Origin: an uncultured bacterium
GTDB lineage: Bacteria; Fidelibacterota; Marinisomatia; Marinisomatales; UBA1611
NCBI GenBank assembly: GCA_964343085.1
Contig: CAYFIF010000001.1
Coordinates: 1-54,172, forward strand
DNA: 54,172 nt
Reading direction: 5' to 3'
Part shown: positions 40,100 through 45,640 of the stretch, one piece after another
Layout of the letters: each line of letters opens with the position of its first letter
How positions within the stretch are numbered: the first letter of the stretch is position 1
Program-made: the position numbers and the translations under genes
The notes under the pieces: generated by a model
The model's database searches: none
The model's input: the letters and a program-made list of their open reading frames with translations, nothing else
What the model was told of the DNA's origin: nothing

Positions 40100-42422
40100 A
40101 AAAATAATTTTATTTTTTTTTATATCTTATTTTGTCTATGGTGATGATAGCTGGAAAGTTTATGATGACTCTGAAATAGCTATTATCAACATATACATTG
40201 ATCAAGATAAAATAGATTGGATGTATGATAATGTATATAGTGATTCGCTGCATGTAGCTAGTATTTCTTTTCAAAATGCTCACATAAATGAGAGTACAGA
40301 CTCAATTGGCTTTAGGCTGAGGGGAAACACATCTAGGAATGCCGAAAAAAAATCGTTCAAAATAGATTTCAATCATTTTATATCAGGTCGCGATTTCTTT
40401 GGTGTCGAAAAATTAAATCTTAATGGAGAGCATAATGATCCATCCATCGTAAGATCAAAGTTATGCTGGGATCTATTCCAAGACATAGGGATGGTATCTT
40501 CGAGGGCCGCTCATGCTGAACTATATATCAATGGAGATTACTATGGGCTTTATGTTTCAGTTGAACATATTGATGATAGTTTTATAGAAAAAAACTATGT
40601 GGATGGCAGCGGAAACCTTTGGAAATGTATTTGGCCAGCAGACCTTACATATCGTGGAAATGATGCAGAAGATTATGAGCCATATTGGGGAGATGAAAGA
40701 CCCTACGAACTAAAGACTAATAAAGAAATTTATGATTATTCCAAACTAGCAAGACTGATTAGAATAATAAATCAAGAGCCTGATTCATTAGAGTTTGTTT
40801 TAAATGTTAAAGAGGCGCTACAGTATCTTGCGATGAATATTTTGACTGGTAGCTGGGATGATTACCGCTCTAATATTAATAATTTTTATCTTTATCATGA
40901 ACCTGAAAAAGATATTTTTCATTGGATACCGTTTGACTATGATAATACATTTGGTGTTGACTGGTTTGGGATTGATTGGTCTACCATTGACCCTTACGAA
41001 TATGAATTAATTAATGATGGCCCAAGGCCACTAACAGAATATTTATTTTCAGAAATAAGATACAGAAATTTATTCACACATTTTCTTGATTTTTATAATA
41101 CGAAATTATTTTCAGATACAATCGTAACATATCAGCCAGTGTCTGCAATCGAGTATAGATTAGAGACTCTAAAAGAGAGCAATTATATTTCTGCATTTAA
41201 TGACGTCTACAGGACATATGATTATGGTTTTAATATTCAAGATTACCAAAATAGTTTTGGATTTTCATTTGAAAACCAGCATGTAAAACAGGGTATTATG
41301 GAGTTTATTAGTTCAAGGAGTGTATCATTAAATAGTCAGCTATATTATAGTGGCTCAGAGCCGATTATTTATCAGGGAGAAATTGGGAAAAATATTGCCT
41401 TGTTAGATGATCCGTTTATTGTTAGCGTATCTGCTTTTGGTCCACAAGGGATAGATGAAATTAAATTCCATTTTAAGTTTGAAGAAGAAACAGACTGGGA
41501 GACAATTAACCTTAATTCTTCTTCTGTCCCCCTTACTTATAAGGTAGAAGAAAACGATCACTGGGAAGCCGAAGTTATTCCAACAGATATTGGTAATTAT
41601 ATTGGTTATTTTACTGCTAACTATAATGGAGACATTGATCGTTATCCTGTGTCAGGTTATAAAACCTTTGAGGTTGTTGAACCAGCCGGACAGATAAATG
41701 TAAAGATTAATGAAATCCTTGCTAAAAACGATCAGACAATTACTGATGAATACGGTGAATATGATGACTGGTTAGAGCTCGCTCCTGCAGATGGCTTTGA
41801 AGCTGATTTAAGTGGCCACTATCTAACGGATAAGCTAGATAATTTAACAAAATGGCAATTTCCCCAAAGCACACAAATTTTAAATTCTGGAGAATTTATG
41901 CTAGTTTGGTGTGATGAGGATGAATCACAGGGTTCTCTCCATACAAATTTTAAATTAAGTGCAGGTGGTGAATTTTTAGCATTAGTTGCTCCTGATGGCA
42001 ACACGATCATAGACTCTATTACATTTCCTGAGCAAAGTAGTGATATCTCATTTGGAAGATCAGGGACGCAGGGGAGTTGGGATTATATGACACCCACTCC
42101 ATATGAACAAAATCAAATATTAAATCTAGATCCAACAAAAAACGAAATCAGTTCATTCAAATTGAACTCCATATACCCAAACCCTTTCAACTCAGTTATT
42201 AACCTGGATATTACTGTTCAAAGTGCAAATCACAGTTTCGAGATCTATTTGGTATCATTATTAGGGAAAATTATTTCTAAGAAAAAGACTTTTTATTTAA
42301 AAACTGGGCTAAATACAATAAACTGGGATATAAGAGATCAAAAAATCAGTTCAGGTGTGTATTTTGTAAAGATAGATAGTGATAATCAAAAAATAAAAAG
42401 GAAAATTATATACCTGAAATAG
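40086..42422 (+). CDS. CotH kinase-fold family secreted protein with an LTD domain and a T9SS C-terminal domain
   Basis: Likely start is ATG 40086 (MQNFKKIILFFFISYFVYG), which overlaps the amylase stop by 14 nt. CotH motifs are IGFRLRGNTSRNAEKKSFKIDFN, KLNLNGEHNDPS and LYINGDYYGLYVSVEHID. The LTD reads VKINEILAKND..DDWLELAP..LSGHYLTDK. The C-terminus is YPNPFNSVINLDI..GVYFVKI. Confidence 0.8.
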   Translation: MQNFKKIILFFFISYFVYGDDSWKVYDDSEIAIINIYIDQDKIDWMYDNVYSDSLHVASISFQNAHINESTDSIGFRLRGNTSRNAEKKSFKIDFNHFISGRDFFGVEKLNLNGEHNDPSIVRSKLCWDLFQDIGMVSSRAAHAELYINGDYYGLYVSVEHIDDSFIEKNYVDGSGNLWKCIWPADLTYRGNDAEDYEPYWGDERPYELKTNKEIYDYSKLARLIRIINQEPDSLEFVLNVKEALQYLAMNILTGSWDDYRSNINNFYLYHEPEKDIFHWIPFDYDNTFGVDWFGIDWSTIDPYEYELINDGPRPLTEYLFSEIRYRNLFTHFLDFYNTKLFSDTIVTYQPVSAIEYRLETLKESNYISAFNDVYRTYDYGFNIQDYQNSFGFSFENQHVKQGIMEFISSRSVSLNSQLYYSGSEPIIYQGEIGKNIALLDDPFIVSVSAFGPQGIDEIKFHFKFEEETDWETINLNSSSVPLTYKVEENDHWEAEVIPTDIGNYIGYFTANYNGDIDRYPVSGYKTFEVVEPAGQINVKINEILAKNDQTITDEYGEYDDWLELAPADGFEADLSGHYLTDKLDNLTKWQFPQSTQILNSGEFMLVWCDEDESQGSLHTNFKLSAGGEFLALVAPDGNTIIDSITFPEQSSDISFGRSGTQGSWDYMTPTPYEQNQILNLDPTKNEISSFKLNSIYPNPFNSVINLDITVQSANHSFEIYLVSLLGKIISKKKTFYLKTGLNTINWDIRDQKISSGVYFVKIDSDNQKIKRKIIYLK

Positions 42423-42427
42423 AGCCT

Positions 42428-42823
42428 TCAATCATCTAAAATTTTTATATAATCCAGCTGAACCTTTTTTTGAACTTCATCATAGCCTAGACATCTGCCT
42501 CTTAAAGATATTTTATCATTTTTGTTTAGTGTTTTGTTTAATGATTTTTTTTCTATCCAGCATATCACTGAATTATTTAGTGAGATTGAGGTGTCAGATA
42601 AATCTGTTACCATTCCGCTGACAGATACAATTTCACCAATAATACTATTCCCTTCATTAACCTGAAATCGCCAAAATAAATCTTTTGAAGTTAACGTTAG
42701 CAAAGGCTCAGCTGTATATTTTGCTTCTTCCTTTTGGTGCATAAAAAATCCATATGCTCCCATAAGTATTACAAGGATGAATAATCGTTTGCCAACCTTT
42801 TTATGTTGAAAAAAGGACTTCAA
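42428..42823 (-). CDS. Membrane-anchored OB-fold (tRNA_anti-like) protein of unknown function
   Basis: 131 aa with an N-terminal TM segment (RLFILVILMGAYGFFM). The pattern IGEIVSVSGMVTDL..ISLRGRCLGYDE resembles the OB-fold tRNA_anti-like family. It is the last gene of the four-gene operon. Confidence 0.4.
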   Translation of the reverse strand: MKSFFQHKKVGKRLFILVILMGAYGFFMHQKEEAKYTAEPLLTLTSKDLFWRFQVNEGNSIIGEIVSVSGMVTDLSDTSISLNNSVICWIEKKSLNKTLNKNDKISLRGRCLGYDEVQKKVQLDYIKILDD

Positions 42824-42841
42824 TCAACAAAAAAATTAGAA

Positions 42842-43306
42842 CTAACCACCAAAAACCTTTAATATGTTTCCATCTAGCTCTGTGTCATACTCTTTGAGGT
42901 TACCAGTTGCAGGAGGATTGACTGCTTCTCCCATGAGATTAAACTGACCACCATGGCCAGATGAACAATCTGATTTTCCATTTTCAAAGGATAAAAGTTC
43001 GTAACCTGCGTGCGTACAATTTCGCGTATACGCAATTATATTTGATTCAGATTCGCGATACAACAATAAACCTTTGTTATCAATAGTGTTTCCATTAGTA
43101 ACAGCAGAACCACCCACTGTCTTTAGCACTGTATAAGGGTCTTCATTTAAATTAAAATTTTCACTCTCACCGGTTGTATCGATGTTAGAAACGGGGTTTG
43201 ATTCTCCGCAATTGGTTAGTAGTACTGAAGTTCCTATCATCGAACAAGCACAGGCTGTCTTTCCAGATAGTTTAATAAATTCCCTTCGATTAATTTTATT
43301 TTTCAT
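42842..43306 (-). CDS. TAT-exported Rieske-like [2Fe-2S] domain lipoprotein with non-canonical ligand spacing
   Basis: It has a twin-arginine motif (NRREFIKLSG) and a lipobox-like LLTNCG. The cluster motif is C97-T-H99 .. C114-S-S-G-H118 (nt 42953-43018). An ATGA overlap joins it to the upstream YceI-like gene. Confidence 0.6.
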   Translation of the reverse strand: MKNKINRREFIKLSGKTACACSMIGTSVLLTNCGESNPVSNIDTTGESENFNLNEDPYTVLKTVGGSAVTNGNTIDNKGLLLYRESESNIIAYTRNCTHAGYELLSFENGKSDCSSGHGGQFNLMGEAVNPPATGNLKEYDTELDGNILKVFGG

Positions 43307-43824
43307 TTTTTATTTTTCACATTCATTTTATACTCTATTTTTATTTGATCATCTATTTTTAAAAACATAAGAGAAGGCCTTTTGATATCAAAATCCGATA
43401 GGTTAATAATAAAATCGCCTTCTACTATAATTTCATCATTTATTTCTACTTTTGCATTTGAAATAATTTCTTTTTCTTTGCCTGCAAATTTCATCATACC
43501 GGTTATTTTTGCAAAGCCCGATTCGATATTGATGTTTGTTGATTTAAAAAGAATTTTTGGGTGTTCCAGTGCATTTGCATAGATTAACATGTTTGAGTCC
43601 CTGTTCCCGTTTTTGCTTTTAAAAGATTCAACAGGAACCTCAATCAGGCATCTATAGTTCTTACTGATGGCCTCATATATAATTTCGCCATTTATTGATG
43701 TACTCATTCCCTTCCAATCGTGAAGAGGGTGACTGCCATAATAGGAAACGTTTCCTTCAAAATGATTATACTTTTGGGAAAAAGAAATGCATATAAAAAA
43801 GAATAGGCTTATAATTTTTTTCAT
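43303..43824 (-). CDS. YceI-like periplasmic (polyisoprenoid-binding family) protein
   Basis: It has a signal peptide. YceI-style motifs are VESFKSKNGNRDSNMLIYANALEHPKILFKS, ITGMMKFAGKEKEI and INLSDFDIKRP. Confidence 0.6.
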   Translation of the reverse strand: MKKIISLFFFICISFSQKYNHFEGNVSYYGSHPLHDWKGMSTSINGEIIYEAISKNYRCLIEVPVESFKSKNGNRDSNMLIYANALEHPKILFKSTNINIESGFAKITGMMKFAGKEKEIISNAKVEINDEIIVEGDFIINLSDFDIKRPSLMFLKIDDQIKIEYKMNVKNKK

Positions 43825-43825
43825 A

Positions 43826-44416
43826 TTAGTAAGGAAGAAAAGTTAATATAGCTGAGAGTGACATTGAAAAAAGAGTTGCCAGTGCAACACGCTGATGTAA
43901 TTCAACGGCCTGCTGGTAGTTAGTTGATTGAGCAATATTTTTCCCGAGAATTGGTATCATTGCCATACCTGAAAAATGTAAATAGCTTAGCCAACGATGC
44001 AGTTTCATTGAATCAAACTTTTTTGAGTATCTTAGACCAGGTGGCGCAAAATAACTTAATGATGCTGATCCCATGTACATAGACCAAACTGGGACACTTA
44101 ACTTTTTGTGGATATCAAAATTTTCATAATTCCCATTAACCAATTGGTTGCCTATAAAACTTTGGTATGCAAATGATGCCCAGGTGATCAAAGCTAGTTT
44201 CTGATGTAACTGTAGCATAGTAGTCCTCAGCTTTAATTCGTCTATACGATTTTTTGGAGCAAGACCCGTAAGCCTAACAAAACCTTTTTCGCCCCATAAA
44301 ATTTTTGTATGAAGCGGCATGTTTTCAGGGAGCGGGTATGAGGATTCAGCTGCTATTAAGATATTGAAAAATAATAAAAATGATAATATTAATTTTTTTT
44401 TATCTTTCATATTCAA
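43826..44416 (-). CDS. Four-helix membrane protein with one His at the start of each helix (possible heme-binding, cytochrome b-like); unknown family
   Basis: 196 aa with a signal peptide and four hydrophobic segments. Each is preceded by His: LQLHQKLALITW, DIHKKLSVPVW, KLHRWLSYLHF and ELHQRVALATL. Its stop lies 1 nt before the YceI-like start. Confidence 0.35.
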   Translation of the reverse strand: MNMKDKKKLILSFLLFFNILIAAESSYPLPENMPLHTKILWGEKGFVRLTGLAPKNRIDELKLRTTMLQLHQKLALITWASFAYQSFIGNQLVNGNYENFDIHKKLSVPVWSMYMGSASLSYFAPPGLRYSKKFDSMKLHRWLSYLHFSGMAMIPILGKNIAQSTNYQQAVELHQRVALATLFSMSLSAILTFLPY

Positions 44417-44473
44417 AGTTATACCATTATTTCTTTTGATTGAAATGGATAATTAATCAATATAAAATTGGGT

Positions 44474-45640
44474 ATGAACAATCTATTACTTTATAGTTCA
44501 TTTTTATTTTGTATTTCTTTTGTTTTGAATGGTTGTGCCTCTACTGGTTTATTCAGCCTTCATGATATGCCTATGCCTAATGGTTTGCACACTGTCGGGA
44601 CAAAGCAATTTGATTGGGTCAATACGACACATATAGATGAATTTTCATCAGACTCAACAAAATATCGACGAATAATGGTACAGTTTTGGTATCCTGGGGT
44701 GGAAAATATATCAGATGAAAATTTTTTGTATTGTGATAACCAAATAATTATTGATGAACTAAGTAAGGAATATAATATTCCAGTTAAATTTTTGAATGAG
44801 GCTCGAAATGTTAAAACAAATTCTTATAGTAATATTATACCTCTGAAACAAAAAGGGCTGTATCCTTTAATAATTTTTTCCCATGGTAAGGGTGGTTATA
44901 AGAGTCAAAACACTATTCAATTTGAAGAACTTGCAAGTCAAGGCTATGTTGTAGTATCTGTAGATCATTCTTATGACGCCGTGATAACTGTTTTTAGTGA
45001 TGGGACTATTGCGCCTTATGTATCAGATGACCCTAAAAAAGTGGGAGACCCTGAATTAGCAGATAGCATAACTCAAAAAAAATTATCTGCAAGAGTAGCT
45101 GATATAAAATTTGTTCTAGATAAAATTTGGTTAGATATTAATTCGACTCCCCTATTCAGCATAATTGATACTTCTAAGATTGGTATGTTTGGACATTCTT
45201 TTGGTGTGGCTACAACGATTTTGTCCTTGCAATCAGATAATAGAATAGATGTTTCAGCTGGTCTTGATGGATGGTTTATTCCACTTTCAAATGAGCAATT
45301 AATAAAAGGATTAAATAAACCTTTTTTACATATAGGAAGAAAAAGCTGGGGTTTTTCTTCTAATAATTATGAAAAAATGGAAAAATTAATGAATAATTCA
45401 AAGGCTGAAAATGCGCACTACCCTGTAAAGAGACTCAAACATTTTGACTTTATGGACGGATCTTATTCAGCGTCATTAGCTATAAAATTAGTTCTTCCTC
45501 ATATGAGCACGTATAATAAAAGTAAGATAAAAGATTTAATGAATAAGATGCTGCTAGCATATTTCAATTCGACTCTTAAGGAAGATAATGCATTGACTGT
45601 GGAGATGGTATCTCGTGAGCTAAGCCTAATAGCAGACTAA
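44474..45640 (+). CDS. Alpha/beta-hydrolase lipoprotein resembling PAF-acetylhydrolase/lipase
   Basis: Likely start is ATG 44474, with a lipobox (VLNGCAS). Motifs are YPLIIFSHGKGGYKS, GYVVVSVDHSYD and the nucleophile elbow GHSFG (MFGHSFGVATT). Confidence 0.6.
   Translation: MNNLLLYSSFLFCISFVLNGCASTGLFSLHDMPMPNGLHTVGTKQFDWVNTTHIDEFSSDSTKYRRIMVQFWYPGVENISDENFLYCDNQIIIDELSKEYNIPVKFLNEARNVKTNSYSNIIPLKQKGLYPLIIFSHGKGGYKSQNTIQFEELASQGYVVVSVDHSYDAVITVFSDGTIAPYVSDDPKKVGDPELADSITQKKLSARVADIKFVLDKIWLDINSTPLFSIIDTSKIGMFGHSFGVATTILSLQSDNRIDVSAGLDGWFIPLSNEQLIKGLNKPFLHIGRKSWGFSSNNYEKMEKLMNNSKAENAHYPVKRLKHFDFMDGSYSASLAIKLVLPHMSTYNKSKIKDLMNKMLLAYFNSTLKEDNALTVEMVSRELSLIAD

Follow-up and report, generated by a model that had tools for sequence, protein, structure and literature searches.

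What is the function of a histidine-rich membrane protein that carries no family assignment and whose gene stands immediately ahead of a gene for a YceI-like protein? The question is raised by four genes on the minus strand at positions 42428 to 44416 of a 54,172-nucleotide stretch of DNA from an uncultured Marinimicrobia bacterium (contig CAYFIF010000001.1; the whole stretch is hereafter called the window). Named in the order of transcription, these genes are g1 (43826..44416), encoding a candidate di-haem, cytochrome b561-like protein that combines an N-terminal signal or anchor with a conserved periplasmic segment, a four-helix membrane bundle, and five near-invariant histidines; g2 (43303..43824), encoding an exported lipocalin-like protein of the YceI family; g3 (42842..43306), encoding a predicted twin-arginine-exported Rieske [2Fe-2S] lipoprotein; and g4 (42428..42823), encoding a small protein with a possible OB fold that has an N-terminal hydrophobic anchor only if translation begins at a TTG codon. 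The region is one predicted operon, and its conserved core consists of g1 and g2. Sequence comparisons indicate that g1 probably represents a distant and so far unannotated branch among b561-like haem proteins, for which two haems are predicted. By analogy, we lean towards reading the locus as a variant of the lipid-peroxyl detoxification system formed by LcoA (cytochrome b561) and BcnA (YceI), in which a new cytochrome family and a periplasmic one-electron carrier would be employed.

Conservation of the g1-YceI pair and its variable partners

The sequence-only reading of this DNA had described four tightly packed genes; all four are encoded by the minus strand at the stated coordinates, and all three junctions agree with our analysis. 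The TAA stop codon of g1 is separated by 1 nt from the ATG start codon of g2, as read from the sequence; g2 and g3 have a common ATGA at 43303-43306; and 18 nt lie between the TAG stop codon of g3 (42842-42844) and the TTG start codon of g4 at 42823. Such tight packing by itself is ordinary for an operon; the conservation of gene order in two phyla exceeds chance.

Synteny was analysed by local profile searches at 113 loci, 33 from Marinimicrobia and 80 from Ignavibacteria. The latter were obtained by scanning species-representative genomes, the query being a distant Ignavibacteria subgroup of the g1 family, and they are titled as Ignavibacteria, Bacteroidota, or Chitinophagaceae metagenome-assembled genomes, the only exception being titled Actinomycetota. 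Where the flanking sequence was long enough, g1 was immediately followed by a YceI gene of the same strand at 31/31 Marinimicrobia loci and 73/75 Ignavibacteria/Bacteroidota loci, so that the pair is kept at 104 of 106 such loci in two phyla. The check for synteny in other genomes, suggested together with the sequence-only reading, thus gave a positive answer for g1 and YceI. The fixed four-gene module which that reading implied is retained in part: the g1-YceI pair is constant, whereas the Rieske gene is optional and the OB-fold gene is confined to the same genus.

The third component of the locus varies in both nature and position. A Rieske gene accompanies the pair at 54 of the 113 loci and is absent from the other 59. 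Thirteen of the 33 Marinimicrobia loci possess it, 6 of them downstream on the same strand, as in the window, and 7 upstream in divergent orientation; among the 80 Ignavibacteria loci it was observed at 41, located upstream on the same strand at 37 and downstream at 4. At six Marinimicrobia loci of other families (L020, L022, L024, L025, L026, and L028), the Rieske gene is replaced by a gene for a mono-haem cytochrome c of 116-137 aa (PSCyt1/Cytochrom_C) that lies directly upstream of g1 on the same strand; its product exceeds the PF07635 cut-off in all six cases, and in some of them the PF00034 cut-off as well. The remaining loci contain the g1-YceI pair alone. No further recurrent neighbour was found among the loci, the other large clusters of open reading frames being antisense shadow frames. 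In our view, the best indirect argument for an electron-transfer role of g1 is the combination of a constant core with interchangeable periplasmic one-electron carriers, and the variation of the redox partner (Rieske proteins in three orders, or cytochrome c) suggests that electrons are exchanged at the periplasmic face of g1. A larger CxxCH-containing protein is encoded further upstream at L020, L022, L023, and L024; at L020 and L024, the two cases scanned against Pfam, it has a dockerin-like C-terminal domain.

In a sample of 301 genomes of the phylum, g1 is present in 50; it occurs in 25 of the 30 genomes of one genus characterized by streamlined genomes of about 1 Mb, and its homologues come largely from marine surveys. 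The preservation of the pair in such marine genomes suggests that it matters for life in oxygenated sea water. PF01292 proteins, the cytochrome family of the known pairs with YceI, were detected in 107 of the 301 genomes and in only 4 of the 50 genomes with g1 (the lists were read by eye, and the genomes are mutually related). No PF01292 gene adjoins a YceI gene among the matches listed for the phylum, and none was found in the window's own genome, which is 71% complete. Canonical pairs of b561 with other YceI genes were looked for in the phylum, and 0 of 10 sampled neighbours encode a b561 protein; these neighbours include DsbD_2/NicO-like, pirin, LigB, UbiE-type methyltransferase, ion-channel, and ABC-2 transporter genes. 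At five loci (L129, L136, L138, L139, and L140) in genomes of the window's own family that lack g1, a different YceI paralogue follows the gene of a 224-aa membrane protein with 11-12 histidines, a DsbD_2 match, and a weak NicO match; YceI is thus paired with a His-rich membrane protein in a second way.

The g1 protein family

The likely true start of g1 is the ATG codon at 44410, where its homologues begin. This start yields a protein of 194 aa, the length of the closest homologues, and the earlier value of 196 aa should be corrected accordingly. A word-based search identified 155 close relatives, none of which has a name or a Pfam domain. In a profile search against 1.84 billion cluster representatives, the family comprised 406 clusters at E ≤0.001 and 198 at E ≤1e-10, with clusters counted at 50% identity.

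The sequence-only reading had drawn attention to histidine motifs at the starts of four predicted helices. These motifs, L-H71-Q-K, I-H103-K-K, L-H140-R-W, L-H147-F, and L-H174-Q-R, are present as described; the conserved histidines number five rather than four. Their conservation, which that reading had proposed as a check, was assessed for 105 full-length representatives mutually ≤50% identical, with counts given over 106 sequences. All five residues are near-invariant (H71 in 106/106, H103 in 98/106, H140 in 104/106, and H147 and H174 in 103/106 each). Other conserved positions are W41, G45, R48, R57, E60, R64, G89, Y114, and P125-P126. A hydrophobic N-terminal segment of the signal-peptide type is found in 87/106 family members, and four hydrophobic stretches are nearly free of charged residues across the family.

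The AlphaFold2 (AF2) model of g1, with a predicted local distance difference test (pLDDT) score of 89.3, starts with an N-terminal hydrophobic helix followed by short helices in the conserved segment, and its long helices span residues 57-93, 100-122, 136-163, and 167-191. Four of the histidines, H71, H103, H140, and H174, are distributed one per helix over four consecutive helices of alternating topology, at the helix starts and 32-37 residues apart. In the resulting topology, segment 25-70 would be periplasmic, placing H71 and H140 at the periplasmic face of the membrane and H103 and H174 at the cytoplasmic face. Each of the conserved histidines deviates by no more than 26 degrees from the middle of the conserved helix face, and is followed by G, A, or T at positions i+4 and i+7, as expected for inward-facing ligands of a flat cofactor.

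The window protein taken alone falls below the cut-off for all Pfam families, and its relatives provide the link to known cytochromes. At least 9 of 20 individually scanned relatives exceed the 23-bit cut-off of PF03188, the eukaryote-type cytochrome b561 family, with the top eight scores at 36.2, 34.1, 34.0, 31.8, 30.2, 27.8, 24.6, and 24.2 bits. Among 60 diverse relatives, PF03188 was matched by 27 (best E 8.9e-9), and the weaker matches were almost exclusively to further membrane families of the haem-binding or cytochrome-b-like type, namely PF01292 (16), DUF4079 (8), PepSY_TM (7), Ferric_reduct (5), DUF420 (4), and DUF4405 (1). We take these families to be those of Pfam's two-haem cytochrome clan. 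The PF03188 matches span two or three helices only. In common with the PF03188 proteins (ascorbate-dependent cytochromes b561 and ferric reductases), g1 carries one histidine on each of four consecutive helices, an arrangement that would suit two bis-His haems; in contrast to them, it consists of four helices and a signal or anchor segment, not of six helices.

Predicted periplasmic components

The assignment of g2 to the YceI-like proteins, made in the sequence-only reading, is supported by a PF04264 score of 54.7 bits (cut-off 23.7), and a signal-like N-terminal segment is visible in the sequence. The g2 product would thus be a periplasmic YceI lipocalin, predicted to be of the kind that binds isoprenoid quinones. 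A second YceI-domain lipoprotein of 226 aa (84.6 bits) is encoded on another contig of the same genome (C41:966-2294); it is unrelated to g2 in sequence, and its gene is followed by the gene of a 186-aa multi-pass membrane protein. This second YceI gene has no cytochrome-like neighbour, and a weak g4-like match there lies inside a 787-aa protein.

The description of the g3 product as a Rieske-like protein likewise holds, and its twin-arginine signal is a candidate one. It scores 33.1 bits with PF00355 (Rieske; cut-off 20.3), and its AF2 model, in which residues 45-154 mostly have pLDDT >86, adopts the Rieske fold. Using Foldseek, the model was matched with probability 1.00 to Rieske ferredoxins, b6f iron-sulfur proteins, kuste4569, the Chlorobaculum Rieske protein, and PetC3; all the listed proteins among the 46 PDB matches at E ≤0.001 are Rieske proteins. 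The N-terminal motif N-R-R-E-F-I-K contains R7 and F10, both invariant in 33 relatives, while the twin-arginine profile TIGR01409 scores 12.7 against a cut-off of 16.7. The lipobox Cys33 is kept in ≥90% of these relatives, and C97, H99, H118, and G119 are invariant in them. The ligand boxes are C97-T-H99 (C-x-H) and C114-S-S-G-H118 (residues 97-118, window 42953-43018). Proteins of the same genus and some relatives from metagenomes also have a CxxxH second box; C-D-R-H or C-V-G-H was observed in other Marinimicrobia, with C-V-G-H at locus L004 of the same family, and C-P-x-H, the form of the Ignavibacteria, is that of most linked relatives. The cysteine of the second box therefore appears to have moved by one position within the window's lineage, and as both Cys and His are kept in this box, cluster binding by g3 is plausible. 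Most of the linked Rieske proteins lack the disulfide cysteines. Three Ignavibacteria loci (L107, L096, and L113) encode Rieske proteins with the bc-type boxes C-T-H-Q-x-C and C-P-C-H-G-S, disulfide cysteines, and a longer N-terminal region.

Judging by its model, the g3 product is a real Rieske-fold lipoprotein, an optional member of the module and a putative accessory periplasmic one-electron carrier. The closest known architecture is that of PetC3 (PDB 5CXM; Foldseek TM-score 0.75 on target), described in excerpts of two reports as a cyanobacterial periplasmic Rieske lipoprotein (+135 mV) residing outside the bc/b6f complex (PMC10172866, PMC12341915). Compared with PetC3 as presented in these excerpts, g3 differs by its CxxxH second box and by its genetic link to a b561-like protein and YceI.

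Proposed pathway

The YceI-family gene bcnA, studied in Burkholderia cenocepacia, usually has a cytochrome b561 gene, lcoA, linked to it on its upstream side; many alpha-proteobacteria carry the two as a fusion, and lcoA/bcnA mutants build up lipid peroxidation products, as shown for Burkholderia (Naguib et al. 2022, PMC9113575). In E. coli K-12, yceJ is located directly upstream of yceI. The window locus shares with the LcoA-BcnA and YceJ-YceI systems a widely conserved arrangement, in which the gene of a four-helix, His-bearing membrane protein immediately precedes a YceI gene on the same strand, and a periplasmic partner protein. It differs from them in that g1 possesses a signal peptide, a conserved periplasmic segment of ~45 residues, and five conserved histidines, and in that the g1-YceI pair often comes with a Rieske lipoprotein or a cytochrome c.

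Haem binding by g1, the path of the electrons, and what the module does for the cell are inferred as follows: (i) g1 would bind two b-type haems, one via H71 and H140 at the periplasmic face and the other via H103 and H174 at the cytoplasmic face, (ii) electrons from the quinol pool or from the cytoplasmic side would cross these two haems to the periplasmic face, (iii) the quinone or lipid held by YceI would be kept reduced there, either directly or via the Rieske centre, and (iv) the envelope would then quench lipid peroxyl radicals, as proposed for LcoA-BcnA of Burkholderia. The g3 product may serve as an optional periplasmic one-electron partner of g1, a position that would be taken elsewhere by a mono-haem cytochrome c or left empty. 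In systems of the MsrQ-MsrP type, a membrane haem-b protein passes electrons of the quinol pool to a periplasmic partner that repairs oxidative damage of the envelope. The pathway proposed here would follow the same logic with different families and partners; Ferric_reduct was weakly matched by the 5/60 relatives of g1 mentioned above.

YceI proteins are widespread, and to our knowledge their sole tested cellular role so far is the LcoA-BcnA defence against lipid peroxidation. The locus suggests that SAR406/Marinimicrobia and Ignavibacteria, large and mostly uncultured groups, realise this idea with a different, unannotated cytochrome-like family, in many cases together with a periplasmic Fe-S or haem-c carrier dedicated to it. 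Such a role would assign a function to at least 406 sequence clusters now called hypothetical and would offer orphan periplasmic Rieske lipoproteins of the PetC3 kind a possible functional partner. Neither a link between YceI and Rieske proteins nor the g1 family was the subject of any paper returned by the literature searches.

Two genes near the operon provide a weak, suggestive context. The divergent neighbour (44468..45640, plus strand) encodes a lipoprotein of the platelet-activating factor (PAF) acetylhydrolase isoform II family (PF03403, 98.3 bits), and a membrane-anchored glutathione peroxidase gene lies 8 kb from the operon. Eukaryotic members of the PAF-acetylhydrolase family hydrolyse oxidised phospholipids, and the family is unusual in bacteria.

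Observations at variance with the proposed pathway and alternative interpretations

A number of observations weigh against the proposed pathway, most of them against the cytochrome assignment of g1. The window protein itself reaches 17.5 bits with PF03188, below the cut-off of 23, and the register of the matches is inconsistent: helices TM1-TM4 being the transmembrane (TM) helices, TM2-TM4 of the window protein correspond to profile positions 2-92, whereas TM1-TM2 of the relatives correspond to positions 50-130. A shifting register would fit a pseudo-symmetric bundle of His-capped helices, yet it weakens plain membership in the b561 family. The window protein has no PF01292 match in the Pfam scan, and comparison of the g1 family by hhalign revealed nothing detectable with E. 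coli YceJ (probability 6%), a three-sequence CybB-like profile (<1%), or 18 hydrogenase-type PF01292 proteins (0.6%). The same comparison with the genome's own DUF420 protein gave a probability of 1.5%. Foldseek searches of the PDB with the g1 model returned generic four-helix bundles only, at E >0.4, and three profiles and one relative, searched against PDB sequences, yielded no meaningful match and no solved b561 structure, the weak matches at E ≥0.004 being short unrelated or de novo designed chains. TM1-TM3 are weakly hydrophobic (Kyte-Doolittle means 0.8-1.0). H147, placed two turns below H140 on the same helix face and kept in 103/106 sequences, is left without an assigned role, and the two putative haem levels would be ~18 helix residues or ~27 Å apart by helix counting, which is long for direct haem-to-haem transfer. 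As for the partners and the role, the CxxxH box of g3 is one residue longer than the consensus CxxH, the lipid-peroxidation role is borrowed from a proteobacterial system with a different cytochrome family, and the PAF-acetylhydrolase-family gene adjoins the operon only within the genus, in a neighbourhood shared only with a same-genus genome.

The m4D2 and 4D2 designs (PDB 9i38/8ccr), de novo haem bundles, were weakly matched by the g1 family profile (E 0.004) in their loop-plus-His segment; the match probably reflects convergence on the pattern of a helix start, a histidine, and small residues.

As judged by these profile comparisons, g1 is not an orthologue of YceJ or LcoA. The sequence-only reading had proposed a non-homologous analogue of YceJ, and the hhalign comparisons, with no detectable relation to YceJ or PF01292, agree with an analogue; the word non-homologous is probably too strong, because relatives of g1 pass the PF03188 cut-off.

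The homology of g1 to known cytochromes is borderline and a di-haem protein needs four histidines, not five, so one may ask whether g1 binds haem at all. The histidines could instead belong to a transition-metal site (Cu, Fe, Zn, or Ni) used in transport or sensing, with YceI and the Rieske protein as periplasmic accessories; the YceI paralogues of the window's family that follow a His-rich DsbD_2/NicO-like membrane protein would suit such a role. We regard this explanation as very unlikely, given that cytochrome b561 is the sole Pfam family reaching the cut-off, that PF01292, PepSY_TM, Ferric_reduct, and related membrane families account for the weaker matches, and that no metal-transporter family appears among the top Pfam families of the 60 relatives. 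In addition, one histidine per helix with small residues below it is the typical pattern of a haem pocket, and the recurrent neighbours of the pair, Rieske proteins and cytochrome c, are electron carriers. These neighbours also bear on how many genes of the operon work together. It might be that only g1 and g2 cooperate, while g3 and g4 are unrelated genes co-transcribed by chance in this lineage, in keeping with the restriction of g4 to the same genus and with the 59/113 loci that lack g3. For g4 this explanation is probably correct. As an account of the whole operon it appears improbable: the Rieske gene recurs in two phyla and three orders, in downstream, upstream, and divergent positions, which is hard to explain without a functional link, and no other neighbour recurs likewise.

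The repeated occurrence of a Rieske protein together with a di-haem-like four-helix protein may, on the other hand, point to a small quinol oxidoreductase of the respiratory type, where the Rieske centre and a b haem would oxidise YceI-delivered quinol in a bc/b6f-like Qo-type reaction and pass electrons to a periplasmic acceptor. The three Ignavibacteria loci with bc-type boxes (CTHQxC...CPCHGS) and disulfide cysteines agree with this scheme, as do the b6f and green-sulfur-bacterium Rieske proteins among the structural neighbours of g3. A Rieske protein that about half of the loci lack and that gives way to cytochrome c at others is not an obligatory catalytic subunit, however, and most of the linked Rieske proteins lack the disulfide cysteines. 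There is no equivalent of the C-terminal part of cytochrome b or subunit IV and no conserved acceptor gene among the locus neighbours, and the genome's own cytochrome c oxidase genes lie elsewhere. Overall, this possibility seems unlikely. A more general form of the idea, to which we also give little credence, is that the g1 family, a Rieske protein or cytochrome c, and YceI as a quinol shuttle constitute a minimal quinol:acceptor oxidoreductase of the Rieske/cytochrome-b type that resides in the cell envelope and has so far gone unrecognised. If true, such an enzyme would occur widely among Marinimicrobia and Ignavibacteria and, as a relative of bc1/b6f in its logic but stripped down, would connect the inner membrane with the outer envelope by electron transfer. 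We retain the variant of LcoA-BcnA detoxification as the preferred reading.

The g4 gene and the genomic context of the operon

The sequence-only reading had included an OB-fold anchor as an unexplained partner in the module. In favour of this description, the g4 product scores 22.5 bits with PF12869 (tRNA_anti-like OB), one bit under the cut-off of 23.5, and a membrane anchor is present with the TTG start. The anchor hinges on that start, since public gene calls mostly use an internal ATG giving a protein of 111 aa. Against a role as a partner, the examined loci that have g4 next to the module are all from the same genus, and all its database relatives are ≥78% identical. The whole-genome search with PF12869 returned nothing, g4 itself included, and was thus too insensitive. 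We conclude that g4 is probably a genus-specific passenger outside the conserved module.

The operon is flanked on one side by a convergent CotH-like gene ending at 42422 and on the other by the divergent PAF-acetylhydrolase-family gene that starts at 44468. The 51-nt intergenic region between g1 and the latter gene (44417..44467) is the presumed promoter region of the operon; a promoter and terminator scan gave matches no more numerous than in shuffled sequence, and shows no promoter.

The genuine DUF420 protein of the genome (145 bits; contig C7:17218-20601, locus L007) is encoded beside haem O synthase-like (CtaB) and SCO1-like genes, identified by eye, and this neighbourhood is a classical context of cytochrome oxidase assembly. 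The cytochrome c oxidase subunits are encoded on contig C167. A weak DUF420 match on the same contig lies inside cytochrome c oxidase subunit I and was rejected as spurious. The presence of cytochrome c oxidase genes together with the assembly context indicates that the organism is aerobic.

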